Assembly (NCBI GenBank): GCA_963768055.1
Contig: CAVYGN010000002.1
Coordinates: forward strand, 1,344,001 to 1,408,000
DNA length: 64,000 nt
Direction of reading: 5' to 3'
From: an uncultured Spirochaetota bacterium
GTDB taxonomy: Bacteria > Spirochaetota > Brevinematia > Brevinematales > JAOACQ01
A model generated the notes under the pieces. That model was not told the DNA's origin. It made no database searches and saw only the letters and a program-made list of their open reading frames with translations. Position 1 is the first letter of the stretch; every line of letters begins with the position of its first letter. This document shows, one piece after another, positions 41,866 through 50,959 of this stretch. The position numbers were made by a program, and so were the translations under genes.

Positions 41866-43431
41866 ATGATAAGAAATTTGTTACCATTTGCTTTTTTATT
41901 ATTAATCGGGCTATCACCGGTATTTGCCGATGAAGCCGGCGCACCGGGATCGGTCCTCTGGACTTATAATTCGGATAAGGCTGTAACCACAAGCCTCTCA
42001 GCAGTTAACGGCAGGCTGTATTTTGGCGGATTGTCGGATAATTTGTATTCGCTTTCCGCATCTACAGGTGAAAAGTTTTGGTCCTTTAAATCCGGGAACC
42101 CCGGGAATTCTTTTGTTTCCAGCCCGTTTTATGCAAATGGAAATATATTTGTAGGTGCGAATCAATCGAAAACGATATACTGTATTGACGGATCTGCCGG
42201 CGCTGCCGTTTGGAATTTTACCTCGGGCGGCGGGATCGAATCCAGTCCTCGTGTTTTCGGGGGAAGGGTATATTTCGGGGCCGATAACAATACCCTTTAC
42301 TGCCTCGATACGGAGTACGGCGGTAAAATCTGGGAATTTATGGCAAAGGGTGTCATTCGTTCCAGTCCTCTAATTATTAGCGGAAAGGTTTATTTTGGCT
42401 CGGAAGATGGGGTCTTTTATTGTATCGATGCCGGCGACGGCCATAAGGTCTGGGAATTCCAGGCCGGAGGCCCGGTCAATTCAAGCCCCTCTTTTTCCGC
42501 TGCCAGGGTTTATTTCGGCTCAGAAAAGGGGAAAATGTTTTGCCTGGATTATATGACAGGGCATGAAATCTGGGATTTTACAGCCCGCAACGGGATTATT
42601 TCAAGCCCGGCCGTCGACGAGGGAAAGGTTATTTTCGGAAGCCTTGATAATAATCTTTACTGCCTTAATTTTATTTCCGGGAAGAAGATCTGGGAATTCA
42701 AGACAGAGAGTAATATTGTTTCTTCTCCAAGCATAGCCGACGGCAAGGTATATTTCGGAAGCCTCGATAAGAAATTCTATTGCCTGAACGAAGATACAGG
42801 CACAAATCTCTGGGAATTGGAGACAAGCGGCTCCGTCAGGTCAAGCCCTGTTATATACGACGGTAAGATTTATTTCGGGAATGATGCGGGAAGGGTTTAC
42901 TGCCTCGATAGCGGTTCGAGGGATATCGAGGGAGTAAATACCCTGGGCGGGCAGGATTATTTTATAACGGAAACAATCCTGGACACGAACTCCAATGAAG
43001 TGACAGCTGAAGATACAAATGCAGAAAATACCAATATTTCGGAAGAAACTAATACTGAAACAAATACTAATGCCGTGGAAAATACGGCTGTTGCTCCTGT
43101 AACCGTTACTAATTACATTACAAATTTCGTGACAAATTTCATAACGGTGACTGTTAAAAATAAAAGCCTTGAATCAGGTTTATCCAACCCCTCTCATTAT
43201 AAATATACGATACAGGCCGGTTCATTTAAGACTTTGAAGAACGCGAAAAAGCTGTACAATATTCTCAGGAAAAACGGCTACAACGCTTTCTATTCAGATA
43301 TCAAAATTGGAAAAACAAGGTATTACAGGGTCAGAGTCGGAAAACTGCAAACCCTGCCTGATACCGAAATATTGATACAAAAATTGACTGACGATGGATT
43401 TAAACCAGTTCTTGTTAAAATTGTCAATTAG
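41866..43431 (+). CDS. Exported PQQ-like beta-propeller repeat protein with Thr/Asn linker and C-terminal SPOR domain
   Basis: Signal peptide VFA-D, about 8 repeats of SSP...GKVYFGS.D..YCLD..G..WEF, and YTIQAGSFKTLKNA...YRVRVG. Confidence 0.9.
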   Translation: MIRNLLPFAFLLLIGLSPVFADEAGAPGSVLWTYNSDKAVTTSLSAVNGRLYFGGLSDNLYSLSASTGEKFWSFKSGNPGNSFVSSPFYANGNIFVGANQSKTIYCIDGSAGAAVWNFTSGGGIESSPRVFGGRVYFGADNNTLYCLDTEYGGKIWEFMAKGVIRSSPLIISGKVYFGSEDGVFYCIDAGDGHKVWEFQAGGPVNSSPSFSAARVYFGSEKGKMFCLDYMTGHEIWDFTARNGIISSPAVDEGKVIFGSLDNNLYCLNFISGKKIWEFKTESNIVSSPSIADGKVYFGSLDKKFYCLNEDTGTNLWELETSGSVRSSPVIYDGKIYFGNDAGRVYCLDSGSRDIEGVNTLGGQDYFITETILDTNSNEVTAEDTNAENTNISEETNTETNTNAVENTAVAPVTVTNYITNFVTNFITVTVKNKSLESGLSNPSHYKYTIQAGSFKTLKNAKKLYNILRKNGYNAFYSDIKIGKTRYYRVRVGKLQTLPDTEILIQKLTDDGFKPVLVKIVN

Positions 43432-43463
43432 ACGAATGCAAGGGGTTGGAAATATAAGGAATT

Positions 43464-44057
43464 ATGAGTATTTTTAATTCGGATAAAACAAACGAAAATC
43501 TTTTGAATGCGGTAATTGAGAAGGATGAAGGGCGGGTCTCGGCATTTCTGTCAAAGGGAGCAAATGTAAATTTTTCCGATGATGAGGGAGAGACTCCACT
43601 CATAAAAGCCTCCCGTGTTTCGAAAAGTATGGTCGAAATTCTTCTTAATAACGGTGCCGATATCAATGCCAGGGACAAGGACGGCTGGTGTGCTTTGATG
43701 TGGGCATCTGAGGCTAAAAAAAAAGATATAGTATTATTTTTGCTTGAAAAAGGCGCAGATATAGATAATCCCAATAATGATGGATGGACCCCTCTTATCG
43801 AAGCGATAATCAGCAGGAATAATGATATGGCGGGGCTTTTTATCAATAGAGGATCGAATATTGAACATGCCGACAGCGATGGAAAAACCCCGATATTCCA
43901 TTCGGTTGAAAACAGGAACATTGATGCATCCAGACTCTTAATAAGTGAAGGCGCGGCCCTGGATAAGAAAGATAATGACGGCAGGACCATCCTGTCAATT
44001 GCACAGGATAATAACGATACCAGAATGTTAGAACTGCTGAAAGGGCTGTTAAGCTGA
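43464..44057 (+). CDS. Ankyrin repeat protein
   Basis: Repeated G.TPL..A...LL..GADIN units. Confidence 0.92.
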   Translation: MSIFNSDKTNENLLNAVIEKDEGRVSAFLSKGANVNFSDDEGETPLIKASRVSKSMVEILLNNGADINARDKDGWCALMWASEAKKKDIVLFLLEKGADIDNPNNDGWTPLIEAIISRNNDMAGLFINRGSNIEHADSDGKTPIFHSVENRNIDASRLLISEGAALDKKDNDGRTILSIAQDNNDTRMLELLKGLLS

Positions 44058-44111
44058 ATCCCCGTTCCTCGATATTTTGACATATTTTGTCTTTGTTTCT
44101 ATAATTTTCCG

Positions 44112-44138
44112 CAAGTTTTATTAATACTCAGTCGATAA
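44112..44138 (+). promoter_or_regulatory. Candidate sigma-28 promoter
   Basis: CAAG-N15-GTCGATAA upstream of the AGGAGG RBS of the gene at 44188. Confidence 0.45.
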
Positions 44139-44187
44139 ATACTGTAATCTTAACATACGCCTATATTAGCGTTTAGGAGGTTAAATT

Positions 44188-44817
44188 ATGGTCATTCAGG
44201 ACCTATACAAATATGAACAAACCGGCTGGAAAAATGAGAATACTCTCCTCTTAAAGCTTGAAGATGAAAAAGAGATCCAGATAAAACAGACATCCAGGGT
44301 CGATGATAACCATATTCTTTTTAATACGCATGGGATGTATTACAAAGAATTCCCGAGCGATTTTTCGAAAGTCAGGGCCTATACCTCATATATTATCCAA
44401 TATGCGCCTGAATTATATAAGGAAATAAACCTTCTTGAACAACAGATTAGCGAAATCGTGAAAAACGGGATAGAGCATGGTAACAAAATGGACCCCAATA
44501 AGAAAATAAAGGTGTGGTTTGATTTTAACAAAAGGGCGAAAATAATCGTCGAAGACGAAGGAAAGGGTTTCCATGTTATGGAAGATTGGAACAAATTCGC
44601 TTTGAACAGGACTATATGCCTTGTGAAACAGGATTTCGAGCATTTTGCCGAACTTGTGGCATGGTCCGGCCCGGACTCCAACGAAATGGACGGTGGCAAC
44701 GCCCTATTTGCAGCCCTCGAATACTGGAACGGCGGTTTCCTCTACAATCTCAAAGGTAATAAAGTAGCTGCAGTAAGGTATTTCCCGGATAATGTCGAAT
44801 ACAAAAATTATATTTAA
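44188..44817 (+). CDS. HATPase_c protein (RsbW/anti-sigma-factor kinase-like)
   Basis: N box EIVKNGIEHGN, G1 box VEDEGKGF, GG and YNLKGNKV motifs. Confidence 0.75.
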   Translation: MVIQDLYKYEQTGWKNENTLLLKLEDEKEIQIKQTSRVDDNHILFNTHGMYYKEFPSDFSKVRAYTSYIIQYAPELYKEINLLEQQISEIVKNGIEHGNKMDPNKKIKVWFDFNKRAKIIVEDEGKGFHVMEDWNKFALNRTICLVKQDFEHFAELVAWSGPDSNEMDGGNALFAALEYWNGGFLYNLKGNKVAAVRYFPDNVEYKNYI

Positions 44818-44830
44818 CTTCTAGGAATCC

Positions 44831-45859
44831 TTAATTAAGGACCTCGAAGCCTATTATCACCACATCATCCATTATCGGCGAAGGTCCCCGGAACCGGTCG
44901 AGCTTTTTCATTATATTTGTAAGCATGTCTCCGAGAGTCAGCCGGCTCTCTCCCGCTATTATATCGCAAAGATTCCTGATACCCAGGAGATTGTTGTCGG
45001 GATCGGTCATTTCATAAGCCCCGTCGGTATAAAGGAAAAGCCTGTCTCCTTTCTGGAGGTACAGTTCATGCTCTTCATAAGTCATTTTATTGGAAACTCC
45101 AAGTATTCCGCCTCCGGAGTTGAGAATTTCGATCTGGCCTGTGTTTTTCCTGAATAAAATCGGCGGCGGATGCCCTCCCTTGGTAAAATTGAAGATAACG
45201 CCCTGGTCTTTCGGGTTAAAATGGAAATGACCATAAACGGCTGTCAGAAAATGAGTTGTCATATTATTCAGGAGGCTGTTATTGAGGCGGGTCATAAATT
45301 CACCTGGTTTGAGCCCGTAATGCCGGCATGCCCTGTCTGCAAAAGCCTTCACGAGAGCGAGGAAGAGTGCCGCTGAAACCCCATGACCCATGATATCGCC
45401 CAGGAATACGCCCAGCCCTCCCTCCCTGAATAGGGTAAACGAGAAGTAATCCCCTCCGACAGTTTCCAGAGGAACATACCTGTAGTCTATTTTAAGTCTT
45501 TCAAAATTGGGGATGTGGCTTGGAAGCAGCGCGTTCTGTATCAATTGGGCGTTTTTTAGGTCCTGTTCGATCATCTCCGTCCTGTGCATCAATTCTTTTT
45601 CGCTTTTAAAGAGGGCCTCTTCAACCGATTTATCGGTGCAGACTGTTTCAAGGTATAATTTACCGTCATCCCGGGCACCAAGAACGATAATATCGAAGCC
45701 CTCGTTCTTCATTTTACTGAGGGCTTCCGAGTAGTTGCTTACCTTGTCCAGCCTTTTAATCGTAAATGAAACAAGGGGCTGAAGGAGGTTTTCAGCCATA
45801 GAATCTCCTTCGATATACACCACAGATAACATCTTTTTAAAATTATCGTTTGAGGCCAT
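44831..45859 (-). CDS. PP2C/SpoIIE-family Ser/Thr phosphatase (RsbU-like)
   Basis: AQLIQNALLP, VGGDYF, GDIMGHGVSAAL, GGHPP, LYTDG and DDV motifs. Confidence 0.92.
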   Translation of the reverse strand: MASNDNFKKMLSVVYIEGDSMAENLLQPLVSFTIKRLDKVSNYSEALSKMKNEGFDIIVLGARDDGKLYLETVCTDKSVEEALFKSEKELMHRTEMIEQDLKNAQLIQNALLPSHIPNFERLKIDYRYVPLETVGGDYFSFTLFREGGLGVFLGDIMGHGVSAALFLALVKAFADRACRHYGLKPGEFMTRLNNSLLNNMTTHFLTAVYGHFHFNPKDQGVIFNFTKGGHPPPILFRKNTGQIEILNSGGGILGVSNKMTYEEHELYLQKGDRLFLYTDGAYEMTDPDNNLLGIRNLCDIIAGESRLTLGDMLTNIMKKLDRFRGPSPIMDDVVIIGFEVLN

Positions 45860-45870
45860 ATTAATCCCCT

Positions 45871-45930
45871 GGCACTACTTATCCGGCCCTCACCAGTTTG
45901 CCTGGTGAGGGCCGGTTATTAGAAGTGCCC
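45871..45930 (-). repeat. Partial GGGC MITE-like element (first module only)
   Basis: The minus strand reads GGGCACTTCTAATAA-CCGGCCCTCACCAG-GCAAA-CTGGTGAGGGCCGG-ATAAGTAGTGCC. It abuts a TTAA that contains the upstream stop codon. Confidence 0.75.
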
Positions 45931-46536
45931 TTAAATTATAATTGATTTTGAAGGATAATCAAGTCGAATATCATAACGGTTTGCAGGCGGCAGGCGGACT
46001 TCTTCAGGGTTTATTTTTATACCGCTGCCGGTAATACCCAGGGAAAACTTTTCGTTTTTTCCGTTTCTGTTGACAGAGACGACGACCTTCTCTTCACCGA
46101 GGTCGAAAACCTGGCCATTATAAAGGCTTTCAACTCCATCCGTGTTTCCTGAAACGAGCCTGTAAAATCCGGGCACATATCTTTCTTCATGCTGGAGGAC
46201 AGTATCCTCGATATAGGCGATATCTTTCGGAGGGGCGAAAAATCTCGCTTTTTTATTCCGGTACTGGATTATTGAATTAAGCCCGATATGTTCAGGCCTT
46301 GAGGACATATTTACCACAAAATCAAGATCGGAATAATTCAAGCCGGCAGTTTCAAAAAGCGCTTCGAGGTCGCTCTGGCTTTCAATTACACCTGAATTAA
46401 CGAGCATTTTTCTGGTATAACCGAGCAGTACGAAATACGAACTCTTTGACAGGGACTTCCCGTAAGGGAGAATAATCCTGTAGCTGAACACAGTGTAAAA
46501 GACGCTTTCATTTAAACCCGTTCTCAGGAAAACCAT
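45931..46536 (-). CDS. Degenerate, shortened metallo-beta-lactamase-fold protein
   Basis: MLVNSG...LDFVVNMSSRPEHIG aligns by eye with the MBL pattern LIDxG...THxHxDHIG, with the metal ligands replaced. GGAGG RBS present. Confidence 0.6.
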   Translation of the reverse strand: MVFLRTGLNESVFYTVFSYRIILPYGKSLSKSSYFVLLGYTRKMLVNSGVIESQSDLEALFETAGLNYSDLDFVVNMSSRPEHIGLNSIIQYRNKKARFFAPPKDIAYIEDTVLQHEERYVPGFYRLVSGNTDGVESLYNGQVFDLGEEKVVVSVNRNGKNEKFSLGITGSGIKINPEEVRLPPANRYDIRLDYPSKSIII

Positions 46537-46568
46537 AACAGCCTCCGAATATTAAATTGGATTAGAAC

Positions 46569-46608
46569 AAAAAAAAACCCGCGGGCGCCTTGCGGGCCTG
46601 CGGGTTTT
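46569..46608 (-). terminator. Intrinsic terminator in a 5' leader (attenuator)
   Basis: The minus strand reads AAAACCCGCAGGCCCGCAAGGCGCCCGCGGG-T9, about 30 nt upstream of the 46536 start and downstream of a promoter. Confidence 0.8.
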
Positions 46609-46625
46609 ATAATATTTTAAGCCTT

Positions 46626-46739
46626 TTATGGGCATAAAATATTACTTTCCGGGAACAGGCCGCCCATTTCAAAATCGACATAAATAAGCGCTGACTTGCA
46701 GATAAGCATTGCTACAAAAGATCTGTTCACGGAAATCAT
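46626..46739 (-). CDS. Putative 37-aa leader peptide
   Basis: AGAGGT RBS followed by an ATG; MISVNRSFVAMLICKSALIYVDFEMGGLFPESNILCP*. It lies between the promoter and the terminator. Confidence 0.6.
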   Translation of the reverse strand: MISVNRSFVAMLICKSALIYVDFEMGGLFPESNILCP

Positions 46740-46767
46740 AATATACCTCTAATATTATATCGGAAAT

Positions 46768-46796
46768 ATTCTACCACCAATAAATTATTTTGTCAA
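46768..46796 (-). promoter_or_regulatory. Sigma-70 promoter with extended -10
   Basis: TTGACA-N17-TAGAAT with TGG preceding the -10 box. Confidence 0.75.
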
Positions 46797-46835
46797 ATAG
46801 CGATTGTAAAAAATAATTTTATTATTTATTCTTAA

Positions 46836-47082
46836 GGGCGGTTCCAATAACTACGAATGTTGTTAACAATTAACATTCTAATTATTTATAATCCGTCCAA
46901 TGGGCCCTAGTGCCTGTCCTGGAGCCAGTCACCAGGACAGGTGCATTTATACTTGCGTATAAACGCAAGCACTACCTATCAGCCTTGCCTGTACCGGCTC
47001 TTGTGCCCGTAAGGGTACTTGTGCCCGAAGGGTATGTCCGGTAAAAAGGCTATGTCCTGTAAGGAGGTTATTAGAAGTGCCC
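46836..47082 (-). mobile_element. Expanded GGGC...GCCC MITE-like element with nested hairpins and TTAA flanks
   Basis: The minus strand runs GGGCACTTCTAATAACC...ATAGGTAGTGC...AATTAGAATGTTAATTGTTAACAACAT...AGTTATTGGAACCGCCC; 247 bp with TTAA on both sides. Confidence 0.8.
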
Positions 47083-47153
47083 TTAAATTATTTTTTATTC
47101 AATGTTTGATAAAATTTATCCGTTTGATACTTTATAAATATTATTTTAAAAGA

Positions 47154-47193
47154 TGTTTAATTATTTGACATAGATATTAATAAATGATATAAT
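47154..47193 (+). promoter_or_regulatory. xylA sigma-70 promoter with overlapping candidate operator
   Basis: Consensus TTGACA-N17-TATAAT. TGTTTAATTATTTGACAT is shared with the sugar-binding-protein promoter. Confidence 0.75.
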
Positions 47194-47222
47194 ATTTTAC
47201 TTTATTATGAAGAGAAGATTAA

Positions 47223-48545
47223 ATGGATGAATATTTTAGAGATGTGAAAGTTATTCAATTCGAAGGCCCGGGGTCGAAAAATCCGCTGAGTTTCAAGTAT
47301 TATAATGCCGAAGAAAAAATCGGCGGAAAAACTATGAAAGACCATCTAAGGTTTTCCGTAGCTTACTGGCATACCATGACAGGAGCGGGCACCGATCCTT
47401 TCGGTTCCGGGACGATGATCAGGCCATGGGATGATGTAAGCGACCCGATGGAAAAGGCAATGGTCAGGATGCGTGTGAATTTCGAATTCATAGAAAAGCT
47501 TGGCATCCCTTTCTACTGTTTTCATGACCGTGATATAGCACCTGAAGCTGATACGCTGACTCAATCCAACCTGCGCATTGACGAAATAGTCAAACTTGCA
47601 GGGGAATTACAAAAAGCATCGGGGATAAAACTTTTATGGGGAACAGCGAATTTGTTCAACAATCCCCGCTACGTACATGGAGCGTCGACCTCCTGTAATG
47701 CTGATGTTTTCGCATTTGCTGCGGCCCAGGTAAAAAAAGCCATTGAAGTTACAATGGAACTTGGAGGCGAGAACTATGTCTTCTGGGGCGGCCGCGAAGG
47801 ATACGAAACACTTCTCAATACAGATCTCAAGCTTGAACTGGATAATTTTGCACGATTCCTTGGTATGGCTGTAGATTACGCTAAAAAGATAGGCTTCAAG
47901 GGACAATTCCTTATCGAACCGAAACCGAAGGAGCCGACAAAGCACCAGTACGATTTCGATGCTGCTACAGTGATCGGTTTTCTAAAAACCTACGGGCTGG
48001 ATAAAAACTTCAAGCTGAATATTGAAGTAAATCATGCCACCCTTGCAGGGCACACTTTCCAGCATGAACTGAACCTTGCCAGGATCAATGGAATGCTTGG
48101 TTCTATTGATGCAAACCAGGGTGATCTGCTCCTTGGCTGGGATACAGACCAGTTCCCTACCGATTTGAATACTACCGCCCTGGCAATGGTAGAGATTTTG
48201 AAAAACGGAGGGCTGGGCTCCGGAGGGACAAATTTCGATGCGAAGGTCCGGAGGGGTTCGTTTGAACCCATCGATCTTTTTTATTCCCACATAGCCGGAA
48301 TGGACACTTTCGCCAGGGGCCTTAAAGTGGCGAAAAAGCTGATTGATGATAAAGTCCTCGATCAATTTATTAATAATAGATACTCAAGTTACAAAACTGG
48401 CATAGGCAGTGACATAGTAAACGGTAAAGCGGATTTCTCAACTCTTGAAAAATATGCCCTTTCAAATGAAAAGATCACAAACATATCCGGAAGGCAGGAA
48501 ATGCTCGAGGCTATCGTTAACCAATATATTCTCGAAACAAAATAG
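47223..48545 (+). CDS. xylA: Xylose isomerase (class II)
   Basis: [37 protein letters not shown] and GWDTDQF motifs. Confidence 0.97.
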
Positions 48546-48575
48546 TATCAAAGCAAAATATTTTCCGGAAGGCAT

Positions 48576-49745
48576 TTGATGATTTCGCCTGTCATAAACC
48601 ATGAAGCGATCAAAAATTATAACCGTAGGAAGATCTTAAGTCTTTTATCTGTCAAAAGGGAATTGACAAGGCATGCTATTTCTTTAAGTACGGGCATAAG
48701 TATACCAACGATCACCATTAACATACAGGAATTGATTGAAGAAGGTCTTGTCGAGGAAGCGGGTAAAGCGGCGTCAACCGGAGGCCGAAAGGCGCGCATC
48801 GTGCGTTATCTGCCTGACGCGCTTGTTTCGTTCGGGGTTGAAATTAAGCCGGAAAAAGTCAGAATTCTCCTTTCTAACCTGGATCTGGAAGTCCGCTTTG
48901 AAACAGAGCTTAAAATGGAACCCTTCGGCCGTATCGACGATGTTTTGAAACAGACCTCGGCCGAAATCGAACGGATTCTGCTATCGCAGCAGATACCGGC
49001 TGAAAAGGTCCTTGGCGTCGGCTTTTCGCTTCCAGGCACTGTAAATCAGGAAAAGATGACGCTGGAACTGGCGCCCAATCTGGGAATGAAAGACATCCTG
49101 TTCAAGCCGTTTGAAAATGTATTCCGCTACCCGATATTTATCGAAAATGAAGCGAACGCAGGCGCGCTTGCTGAAATGAAACTTGGAAAATCAATAAAAT
49201 CGGACGAACTGGTTTATGTCTCGGTTGCCAGGGGAATCGGAACCGGGATCATTATTCATGGAAATTTATATAAGGGAAAAAACCAGCGCGCGGGCGAGTT
49301 CGGGCACATGATGATCATCCCCGGAGGAAAACTTTGCAATTGCGGCCGTAAAGGCTGCTGGGAGCTTTATGCCTCGGAAAAAGCCCTTATGGACCGCTTT
49401 ATTGCATCCTGGGGCGTACAGAATTCAACCGCTTATTCCATTTCAGATTTAGTCAAATCTTTAAAATCAGGTGAAAAAGCGACCCTCAGTTTATGGAACG
49501 AATACCTGGATTATTTCGCTTTCGGAATTCAAAACATCATGCTGGGGCTTGACCCTCAGGCTATTTTGATAGGCGGGGAAATAGGATCATTCGGTGATAT
49601 GCTCATCGAACCTCTGAAAGAGAGGGTGTTTACACCGCGGGGATTCGAGGGGGCCGGTGATGTCTTAATTACCCTTTCGAAACTCGGATCGCGGGCGCCG
49701 GCGCTCGGGGCAGCTTTACTTCCCATCCAGGAATACCTGAAATAA
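48576..49745 (+). CDS. xylR: ROK-family transcriptional repressor (XylR-like)
   Basis: N-terminal winged HTH with STGGRK, IENEANAGALAE and GEFGHM...CNCGRKGCWE motifs; adjacent to xylA. Confidence 0.82.
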   Translation: MMISPVINHEAIKNYNRRKILSLLSVKRELTRHAISLSTGISIPTITINIQELIEEGLVEEAGKAASTGGRKARIVRYLPDALVSFGVEIKPEKVRILLSNLDLEVRFETELKMEPFGRIDDVLKQTSAEIERILLSQQIPAEKVLGVGFSLPGTVNQEKMTLELAPNLGMKDILFKPFENVFRYPIFIENEANAGALAEMKLGKSIKSDELVYVSVARGIGTGIIIHGNLYKGKNQRAGEFGHMMIIPGGKLCNCGRKGCWELYASEKALMDRFIASWGVQNSTAYSISDLVKSLKSGEKATLSLWNEYLDYFAFGIQNIMLGLDPQAILIGGEIGSFGDMLIEPLKERVFTPRGFEGAGDVLITLSKLGSRAPALGAALLPIQEYLK

Positions 49746-49768
49746 CTGACGCGATAAGAGCGGAAATA

Positions 49769-50959
49769 TCAAGCAAGCCCGGATTTGCGGCGGGTGTAGA
49801 TATCGTATAGAACGGCCAGCAGAAGAACGCTGGCCTTGACGACATACTGCCAGTGAGCGCTGATATTCATCAGCGACATCCCGTTGTTTATCGACGCCAT
49901 TACAAGCCCGCCGGTTATTGCCCCTATAATAGTGCCGATTCCGCCCGAAGTCGACGCCCCCCCTATAAAACAGGCGCCGATGGCGTCGAGCTCGAAAAGG
50001 TTCCCGGCCTGCGGCAGCGCGGAATCCATGTATGCGGCGAAAATAACACCGGCCAGTCCGCAAAGCCCGCCCATTATAACATGTACTGTGAAGACCACAC
50101 GCTCTGTATTTATGCCCGACAGCTTTGCCGAACGCGCGTTCCCGCCTACAGCGTAGATGTAGCGGCCGAGAATCGTATTATTTGAGATAAAACTAAAGAG
50201 CGCAATGGTTATTCCTAAAAAAATTGCAACTATAGGCATGCCGCGGTAAGTAGCGAACTTCCAGGACAGAGCCCCTATAAAAAGGCCGATAAATAGAATT
50301 CTCGCCATAAATAATCCGATAGATATCACAGCAAAATTATAACGTTTCTTGTTATTTCGTGAAATGATTTCAAAAATTATATAAACGATGAAAACCAGGG
50401 CGCCTATGAGCAGCGCGGTATAATATACGTTATCTATTGTAAGCTCCGGTATATTGACCATGCCGGTAGCGATCTGTTTGAACTGGTCATCCTTGAGGGA
50501 GATCGGTGTTACATTGGTTATGATATATGTCAAACCGCGGAAAAGCAGCATTCCGGCGAGAGTTACAATAAACGCCGGTATCCTGAGATATGCAACCCAA
50601 TAACCCTGGAATGCGCCGATAAGAACACCGATGAAAATAGTCAGGACTACCGTGGAGAACATGCCGATTCCGGTATTATATAGAATGGCGCCTATCGCTC
50701 CGGTCATCGCGCAGAAGGACCCGACAGAAAGATCGATATTCCCGATAATGATAACCAGCATCATTCCTACTGCAAGCAGCAGGATATAGCTGTTCTGCAT
50801 AAAGATATTTGTTATATTGCGCGAACTCAAATTTATGCCGTTTGTCAAAAATGCAAAGCCGATCAGAATCAACGCTAACATTAGGATCATGGAATAATTA
50901 CGGATATTGCTTAAGAGCAATGAGCTTAATGAGGTTTTTTGCGATCCGCCGTCACTCAT
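49769..50959 (-). CDS. Monosaccharide ABC permease (GguB/XylH type)
   Basis: IDLSVGS, IPAFIVTLAGMLLFRG, GRYIYAVGGN and ELDAIGACFIGG motifs. Confidence 0.93.
   Translation of the reverse strand: MSDGGSQKTSLSSLLLSNIRNYSMILMLALILIGFAFLTNGINLSSRNITNIFMQNSYILLLAVGMMLVIIIGNIDLSVGSFCAMTGAIGAILYNTGIGMFSTVVLTIFIGVLIGAFQGYWVAYLRIPAFIVTLAGMLLFRGLTYIITNVTPISLKDDQFKQIATGMVNIPELTIDNVYYTALLIGALVFIVYIIFEIISRNNKKRYNFAVISIGLFMARILFIGLFIGALSWKFATYRGMPIVAIFLGITIALFSFISNNTILGRYIYAVGGNARSAKLSGINTERVVFTVHVIMGGLCGLAGVIFAAYMDSALPQAGNLFELDAIGACFIGGASTSGGIGTIIGAITGGLVMASINNGMSLMNISAHWQYVVKASVLLLAVLYDIYTRRKSGLA

Follow-up and report, generated by a model that had tools for sequence, protein, structure and literature searches.

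A probable trp-type leader-peptide attenuator without a regulatory codon run ahead of a degenerate metallo-beta-lactamase-fold gene in Brevinematales

Leader-peptide attenuation is textbook knowledge for the amino-acid operons of Proteobacteria, and its classical examples are the trp, his, leu, thr, ilvGMEDA, ilvBN and pheA operons of enteric bacteria. Stalling on a short leader open reading frame (ORF) also governs genes outside biosynthesis, as in Salmonella mgtL/mgtA, Bacillus subtilis bmrB-bmrCD, erm, cat and the Escherichia coli leaders tnaC and speFL; for such leaders both the signal (proline or Mg, antibiotics, Trp, ornithine) and the logic behind the regulated gene are established, and Rho is the target of tnaC and speFL. 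A full-text literature search returned no report of leader-peptide attenuation in Spirochaetota or of the element considered here. We analysed 64,000 nucleotides (nt) from the genome of an uncultured Spirochaetota bacterium (the source genome, G000; 3.69 Mb in two contigs, C1 and C2), namely C2:1344001-1408000, hereafter called the window. Its minus strand carries a leader that is probably a ribosome-mediated transcription attenuator of the trp type, controlling a lineage-specific and, by its sequence, catalytically dead gene of the metallo-beta-lactamase (MBL) fold. What is new here is the predicted combination of a trp-type switch that lacks a codon run, a scaffold shared with an asd leader, and a position before a non-enzymatic MBL-fold gene.

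The locus shares with the enteric attenuators a promoter, a short ORF, a helix between regions 1 and 2 that overlaps this ORF, a competing 2:3 helix, a 3:4 terminator and a gene just downstream (Table 1). It differs from them in that the leader contains no run of a single codon and the controlled gene is not biosynthetic. Moreover, the stop codon, which in enteric leaders lies between regions 1 and 2, here follows region 2 and sits in a further hairpin, P1, that is nested in the antiterminator. With the stalling leaders the locus has in common the proposed principle that translation of a short ORF decides the expression of a non-biosynthetic gene; no sequence likeness to them was noticed, nor was one looked for, and an intrinsic terminator is used here whereas tnaC and speFL use Rho. 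The original prediction for this locus, made from the sequence alone, had placed here a promoter, a ribosome-binding site, a 37-codon ORF, a terminator with nine T residues and a gene start, and every one of these coordinates was verified on the minus strand.

Folded as a 206-nt RNA, the leader reaches -63.5 kcal/mol, compared with -45.7 +/- 4.0 kcal/mol for 200 shuffled sequences (z = -4.4), none of which folds as well. The minimum free energy (MFE) structure contains a helix that the original prediction had not listed, in which codons 2-6 (region 1) pair with codons 28-32, CUGUUC-C-CGGAAA (region 2). Four regions with the pairings 1:2, 2:3 and 3:4 are thereby present, as in trp. In the antiterminator 2:3, GGCCUG is complementary to CAGGCC and P1 is enclosed; constrained folds also pair CGG (46651-46649) with CCG in the terminator 5' arm, so that nearly the whole of this arm is covered. 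The terminator itself has an energy of -18.6 kcal/mol in our own terminator scan and of -23.0 kcal/mol with its flanks. A simple terminator scan left this minus-strand terminator unlisted, its sole entry here being a plus-strand piece of 6 pairs (46589-46604); both the fold and the second scan show the structure that it missed.

Is this layout kept in relatives? An orthologue survey covered 41 genomes, comprising the source genome, 11 others of the same family and 29 from outside the family. The gene for the 201-residue protein was found in seven of them: the source genome, all four others of its genus, and two of the seven family members that belong to other genera; the 29 genomes beyond the family yielded none. 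These seven genomes, which belong to one family of Brevinematales and represent three genera (five genomes in the genus of the window, two in other genera), form the orthologue set used below. All seven retain the whole layout upstream of the gene: a promoter resembling TTGACA-N17-TAnAAT, in which TTGACA is invariant, followed by CCGATA, a purine-rich Shine-Dalgarno (SD) sequence, a leader ORF of 34-38 codons with indels that are all multiples of three, a hairpin that contains the stop codon, and a terminator built on the core ACCCGCAGG...CCUGCGGGU. Leader and gene occur together in each case, and neither was found in the remaining five genomes of the family. Among members of the genus, identity is 70-81% for the leader DNA and 59-74% for the protein. 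Judged by sequence comparison, the recurrence of this layout in seven of seven genomes is more than chance. A search for related loci with the single 201-residue protein as query found nothing; with the protein alignment as query, four genomes came back, all of them already known, and a metagenome search for the locus gave three near-identical relatives and one 21-residue fragment, all of these returns being left out of later counts.

The competing helices are conserved by compensatory change. We scored pairing as the percentage of alignment cells that are paired, with slid partners and 500 shuffles as controls. Across the seven leaders, 1:2, P1 and the terminator taken together are paired in 88.9% of cells, as against 30-56% with slid partners, and 10 of their 36 pairs show changes on both sides, compared with 4.6 in shuffles, a count that none of the 500 shuffles reaches. 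Half of the pairs of helix 1:2 (6/12) covary, for example from GAACAG/CUGUUC to AAACAG/CUGUUU and from CCG/CGG to CUG/CAG. Both the terminator and the antiterminator 2:3 are paired in 97.6% of cells, and in the latter the two outer pairs of six covary (GG/CC, GG/CU, AG/UU, AA/UU, UC/CA). The residues encoded at these two pairs vary (Gly-Gly, Gly-Ser, Cys-Asn, Lys-Ser), which argues that the RNA, and not the peptide, is kept there. In a ten-sequence set that adds three paralogous leaders (two of asd and one of an Fe-S gene, described below), 2:3 is paired in 96.7% of cells versus 2.6-56% when slid, and the inner part of 1:2 in 92.2%, with four of nine pairs covarying (0-1 of 500 shuffles). Compensatory changes are present in the anti-antiterminator, the antiterminator and the AU-rich hairpin P1. 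Unaided, RNAalifold predicts 1:2 and the terminator. A hairpin stands at the place of P1 in all seven leaders, the two distant genera having other sequences there (UAUUAUAUUU/AAAUAUAAUA and ACUGUUU/AAACAGU). On this evidence the mutually exclusive GGCCUG/CAGGCC stem drawn in the original prediction is a conserved antiterminator, and the leader-peptide architecture that it proposed is borne out by the alternative folds, by conservation in three genera and by covariation.

Table 1. Features of the attenuator locus, its neighbourhood and the paralogous leaders (window coordinates unless a contig is named; C1 and C2 belong to the source genome except where G004 is given)
Feature	Position	Strand	Description	Basis
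Sigma-70-type promoter	46768..46796	-	TTGACA-N17-TAGAAT, TG before -10; -35 at 46796-46791, -10 at 46773-46768	Consensus scan, 11/12
CCGATA at presumed transcription start	46758..46763	-		Invariant columns, alignment of 7 leaders
SD sequence	46746..46750	-	AGAGG, 6 nt before ATG	Sequence reading
Leader ORF	46626..46739	-	37 codons + TAA (46628-46626), ATG at 46739	Translation MISVNRSFVAMLICKSALIYVDFEMGGLFPESNILCP
Region 1	46723..46735	-	UUUCCG-U-GAACAG, codons 2-6, 5' strand of 1:2 helix	MFE fold, RNAalifold, pair counts
Region 2	46646..46661	-	GGCCUG (46661-46656), antiterminator strand; CUGUUCCCGGAAA (46658-46646) pairs with region 1; overlap CUG
P1	46609..46645	-	AU-rich hairpin; 5' arm formed by last codons of leader, stop codon in loop
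Intrinsic terminator	46569..46608	-	A-tract; region 3 in 5' arm (CCG 46603-46601, CAGGCC 46600-46595); region 4 = 3' arm 46589-46578; T9 46577-46569
Gene under the putative attenuator	45931..46536	-	201-residue truncated, ligand-less MBL-fold protein; ATG at 46536
Strong hairpin	45880..45918	-	17-nt arms, 94% complementary, no T-run	Between MBL-like and PP2C genes
PP2C gene	44831..45859	-	342-residue protein, SpoIIE/PP2C domain at residues 146-339	PF07228, 4.7e-40, 138 bits vs cut-off 25
asd leader	C1:1704805-1704987		Peptide MTFSTRFNTKTTMKKTHSCIFRRSLFAGNYIFMLK, Thr/Lys/Met-rich (TKTTMKKT), 40 nt before gene	asd NF011456, 337 bits, above cut-off
trpE leader	C2:249210-249423		Peptide MKLPFFFANNWWWRVKLSFSGDKY, WWW	trpE TIGR00564, 593 bits, above cut-off
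ilvB leader	upstream of C2:1116515	-	Peptide MKPGILFSNLLLAVVVLLNSVDRLCPRG (LLLAVVVLL), then terminator	ilvB homologue
Third scaffold copy	G004 C2:1867683-1867864		Peptide MYSAADRILRTTSKPAHKIVNQNRRSLSAWSPVL	Before 227-residue QueG/reductive-dehalogenase-like 4Fe-4S protein (sub-threshold matches)

In the source genome 33 nt separate the T-run from the gene, and a promoter scan gave no promoter-like site there on the gene strand; in G003 the T-run abuts the GGAGG of the gene, with no space for a promoter. We therefore take the gene to be reached by read-through. The distance between terminator and gene is 90-190 nt in G001, G006 and G008. An Rfam search at a permissive E-value gave nothing near threshold, the best match being Leu_leader at 23.6 bits against 50 and covering the hairpin and terminator only, and the 37-residue leader peptide matched nothing in Pfam or NCBIfam. 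CCGATA may mark the transcription start, to judge from its spacing to the -10 box. A 17-nt inverted repeat (82% complementary, 46782-46819) overlaps the -35 box and is, by eye, not kept in relatives. A further candidate helix, joining CGAUAUAA at the 5' end to UUAUGUCG in mid-ORF, comprises 8 base pairs (bp) in G000 and G002, is broken in G001, G004 and G003, and was dropped. An inner-ORF hairpin was sought to account for the conserved AAGUCAGCGCUU, and just 3-4-bp helices with little covariation were found.

The leader belongs to a small family of paralogous scaffolds. A terminator-core search of the source genome found three loci, and a crude scan for a promoter-proximal terminator with a short ORF gave nine candidates, of which the strong ones are again these three loci. 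The asd and trpE leaders share the terminator core CCCGCAGG...CCUGCGGG with the MBL leader, and these two and the ilvB leader have the layout of leader ORF plus terminator in common with it; the asd leader also possesses region 1, region 2 (AGCCUGUUUGCAGG) and the AU hairpin at the stop codon. All three combine plain codon runs with matching biosynthetic genes, whereas the MBL leader has neither. Among the 12 family genomes the asd gene with its leader was found only in G000 and G006, and a third copy of the scaffold precedes an Fe-S gene in G004. A covariance model of all ten leaders (R1: seven MBL, two asd, one Fe-S) matched in eight of the 12 family genomes, with none above 115 bits beyond its ten training sequences, and had no match in 24 genomes of the order outside the family. 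Nine low-scoring matches of R1 were inspected and comprised seven trp leaders, one ilvB leader and one sequence with a terminator only on the strand read. Trp leaders with WWW (WW in G008) and a terminator precede trpE-like ORFs in seven family genomes, and the ilvB leader of G004 contains the run VVVVVVVVLL and is followed by a terminator (TIGR00118, 617 bits). A second model, trained on the seven MBL leaders only (R2), gave 82.4 bits to the Fe-S leader, 78.1 and 60.0 bits to the asd leaders of G006 and G000, and 43.6-54.9 bits to trp and ilv leaders; in BLAST, the asd leader matches MBL leaders at 72-76% identity along some 90 nt that include region 2, P1 and the terminator. These scores and identities place the MBL leader in a scaffold family in which each copy has a middle part of its own. 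The comparative evidence thus documents leader-peptide attenuation in an uncultured family of Brevinematales, and the occurrence of one scaffold before three unrelated genes with different middle cassettes amounts to a natural experiment on the swapping of sensing codons. The covariance model is usable for annotating these leaders.

How might translation of the leader decide the fate of the transcript? We folded the seven leaders, each cut just before region 4, with a 28-nt mask representing the ribosome. When the P-site is placed at codon 1 or 5, all seven leaders have 2:3 with P1 inside it as their MFE structure; at codon 20 it is still there in all seven, failure starts at codon 22, and at codon 25 or 30 it is lost throughout. 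The energy gains of 1:2 (-5.3 to -12.3 kcal/mol) and 2:3 (-4.0 to -10.8 kcal/mol) are similar, so that occupancy can tip the balance between them, and the terminator (-20 to -28 kcal/mol) is far stronger than the alternative helices, as it is in classical attenuators. In each of the seven leaders, 19-22 nt separate the stop codon from the terminator stem downstream of it, and in our reading a ribosome terminating at this codon would melt P1 and leave the terminator untouched. The leader ends in Pro-stop in four of the seven orthologues (CP-stop, CP-stop, HP-stop and YP-stop; 46626-46631 in the window). A C-terminal proline slows peptide release, and with such an ending the ribosome would stay longer on P1 and basal read-through would drop.

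We envision a scenario whereby the strong promoter fires and the 37-codon leader is translated as the four RNA segments compete, with P1 inside the 2:3 pairing and bringing regions 2 and 3 together. A ribosome that reaches the stop codon would unwind region 2 and P1, the terminator would form, and transcription would stop 33 nt before the gene. If the leader were not translated at all, 1:2 would form first and the terminator would form again. A ribosome held in the first 21 codons or so while the polymerase makes region 3 would cover region 1 and leave region 2 free, so that 2:3 could form and the polymerase could read through into the MBL-like gene. From this order of events we infer the direction of control: most likely, the attenuator reports slow translation of codons about 7-21 and the gene is switched on as ribosomes slow. 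According to a published account of the kinetic theory of attenuation (PMC1183508), a pause hairpin that is melted by the ribosome synchronises ribosome and polymerase.

A number of observations weigh against this scenario. The seven orthologue genomes are kin, so that the shuffle counts overstate their independence; four base-pair positions hold most of the covariation of 2:3 and inner 1:2; and P1 is not predicted by RNAalifold on the MAFFT alignment, in which its 3' arm is badly aligned. When codons 15-22 are masked, 1:2 re-forms in two of the seven leaders (G004 and G003), which renders the limits of the permissive stretch soft. Without a ribosome, the cut transcript prefers 2:3 in five leaders and 1:2 in two, and the step from absent translation to termination would thus rest on the order of synthesis and not on energy. 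The codons add to this. The leader contains no run of one regulatory codon, and in this it is unlike the trp, ilvB and asd leaders of the source genome. Leu, Ile and Val account for 11 of its 37 codons (30%) versus 24.2% in 1019 long ORFs of the genome, and a check of the sensing stretch found no rare codon. In the variable middle of the ORF, 8, 8 and 8 of 11 columns vary at codon positions 1, 2 and 3, without third-position excess, an even spread by which selection on the peptide itself is not shown. Finally, a search of sequencing runs found no RNA run that contains the window DNA and eight DNA runs that do, from two studies (peat and freshwater sediment). Both the count of 11 and the lack of a clear run had been stated in the original prediction, and the orthologous peptides and the codon-usage check agree with it.

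What might slow the ribosome within codons 7-21? Because no codon run is present, we rank a general slowing of elongation over these mixed, Leu/Ile/Val-weighted codons first, a branched-chain signal second and nascent-peptide arrest third. According to PMC1183508, the more regulatory codons a leader has, the more sensitive it is to the one amino acid, a dependence that fits a weakly specific sensor at this locus. The orthologous peptides follow the pattern L..K.[AV]L[IV].V, and codons 12-19 in the window read L-I-C-K-S-A-L-I. K15 (AAG) and L18 are invariant in all seven, L18 being encoded by CUU, CUC or CUA; all seven have Ile or Val at position 19, and V21 is found in six.

This pattern would fit a branched-chain sensor, in which the ribosome stalls at [AV]-L-[IV]-x-V (codons 17-21) and at Leu12 when the tRNA for Leu, Ile or Val is uncharged. 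Consistently, Leu, Ile and Val make up 5-7 of the 14-16 sensing codons of each orthologue, against 24.2% in the proteome, and the position of the stretch matches that of TKTTMKKT (codons 9-16) in the asd leader: the Thr/Lys/Met codons of the latter lie 9-16 codons before the CUG of region 2, an offset that here corresponds to codons 12-19. However, the source genome and a sister genome own true ilvB leaders with unbroken runs, and this lineage therefore builds branched-chain sensors differently; 11 of 37 codons barely exceeds the background and the codons are common, and nothing ties the downstream gene to branched-chain metabolism. We consider such a sensor unlikely, even if it fares better than the alternatives that follow.

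The same residues could instead act as a peptide. If K-[SRM]-[AV]-L-[IV]-x-[VY] stalled the ribosome near codon 21 in response to a small molecule or a ribosome antibiotic, in the manner of TnaC, SpeFL or the Erm and BmrB leaders, region 2 would be freed for the antiterminator. The motif ends at the last P-site that leaves region 2 uncovered (codon 20-21), K15 and L18 persist over three genera while flanking residues drift, and the motif may resemble the hydrophobic motifs of Erm leaders. Against this stand the lack of an excess of synonymous changes in the motif, the small inner helices that RNAalifold places here (CUU/AAG and GCUU/GGGC), by which the conservation may partly be one of RNA, the want of a Pfam match for the peptide, and a downstream gene that is no resistance or catabolic gene for an evident ligand. 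Arrest by the nascent peptide is accordingly less likely again.

Alternatively, there might be no switch, the ORF being an independent micro-protein gene with a leaky terminator and the MBL-like gene living on constant low read-through. The conserved ORF length, the strong promoter and SD sequence, and a terminator that is much stabler than either alternative helix are all compatible with this, and the longer gaps of G001, G006 and G008 could hold a second promoter; G003, in contrast, has no room for one. The compensatory changes that keep 1:2 and 2:3 would be needless for a plain terminator, the peptide is poorly conserved beyond a few positions, and leader and gene co-occur in seven of seven genomes and are both unfound in the five others of the family, all of which makes this reading improbable. 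Least probable of all is an antitermination factor, whether protein or small RNA, that binds CCGAUA at the 5' end or AAGUCAG in the middle of an incidental ORF and thereby chooses terminator or antiterminator: CCGATA is invariant in the seven MBL leaders, absent from the asd and Fe-S paralogues and has found no other explanation, but ORF, SD sequence and frame are kept in all seven and in the three paralogous leaders, no Rfam family matches, and the neighbours (MBL-like, PP2C, RsbW-like, xylA) include no candidate binding protein.

Which protein would the trp-type attenuator control? The 201-residue sequence matches nothing in Pfam or NCBIfam. An AlphaFold model from the seven-sequence alignment is of middling quality (mean pLDDT 65, pTM 0.68), and Foldseek returned 461 PDB matches at E <= 0.001 (best E 1.8e-7, TM about 0.5), those listed being MBL-fold or related flavodiiron/ODP folds. 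When a family profile was run against 1.84 billion representatives, 117 proteins matched at E <= 0.001, six of them at <= 1e-30, and proteins of about 280 residues were reached. Sixteen profile matches were scanned, of which 11 pass the Lactamase_B threshold, one falls just under it and four have no match; no more than 16 relatives came from a word-indexed search of 5.8 billion clusters. In the alignment to full-length relatives, INTHSHPDHIG is replaced by VNMSSRPEHIG, which turns HxHxDH into S-x-R-P-E-H; NRNGKNE stands in place of the third His motif, TPGHSAD, and the protein lacks the C-terminal 80-100 residues. The protein thus shares the fold of the MBL superfamily (Lactamase_B PF00753; ODP PF19583) and differs from it in being truncated and devoid of metal ligands. 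The original prediction had called the gene a dead MBL-fold gene outside amino-acid biosynthesis, and the fold match together with the absence of HxHxDH and of the downstream His/Asp ligands upholds both statements. The final codons of the MBL-like gene, with its stop, come from a repeat copy at 45914-45947; the C-terminal tail of the protein differs in every orthologue. Together with 47066-47099 this copy makes up a 34-nt direct repeat (91% identical) that corresponds to one end of a dispersed element considered below.

The original prediction had further placed a PP2C phosphatase gene under the attenuator and suggested that translation status might gate a partner-switching signalling module. 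The PP2C domain is indeed present, and its gene adjoins the MBL-like gene in all five genomes of the genus; this adjacency is absent from the two other genera, which keep leader and MBL-like gene. A promoter-like site (45962-45935) as well as a strong hairpin lies between the MBL-like and PP2C genes, which may or may not share a transcript, and the proposed gating is an inference. Further along, 41866-44817 encodes a PQQ-repeat/SPOR-like protein (521 residues), an ankyrin-repeat protein (197 residues) and a convergent 209-residue HATPase; all five genomes of the genus keep these three in synteny with PP2C and the MBL-like gene. The HATPase has sub-threshold RsbW/SpoIIAB matches (23-25 bits versus 135-155), and a STAS gene was looked for only among the ORFs of 42000-50000. 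A complex prediction for the PP2C and MBL-like proteins scored 0.18 against a mark of 0.32, which lends no support and is uninformative either way on binding. It is conceivable, and in our estimate rather doubtful, that the leader is a general sensor of translation speed built on a modular scaffold which the lineage re-uses and whose sensing cassettes can be exchanged (Thr/Lys for asd, mixed hydrophobic codons here and a third cassette before the QueG-like gene), and that slow ribosomes induce at this locus a dead MBL adaptor feeding the adjacent PP2C/RsbW-like pair. If a copy without codon run does act on a dead-enzyme-like gene beside PP2C, translation status would be tied to signalling and not to biosynthesis; and if the reading of general speed and partner switching were true, ribosome status would feed a stress sigma cascade that bypasses (p)ppGpp.

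On the other side of the leader promoter, between it and xylA (47223, plus strand), 46830-47105 is a dispersed repeat, represented by 61 BLASTN pieces over both contigs. At its ends stand what seem to be imperfect inverted repeats (GGGCGGTTCCAATAAC / GGTTATTAGAAGTGCCC), and a similar element lies upstream of the ilvB leader.

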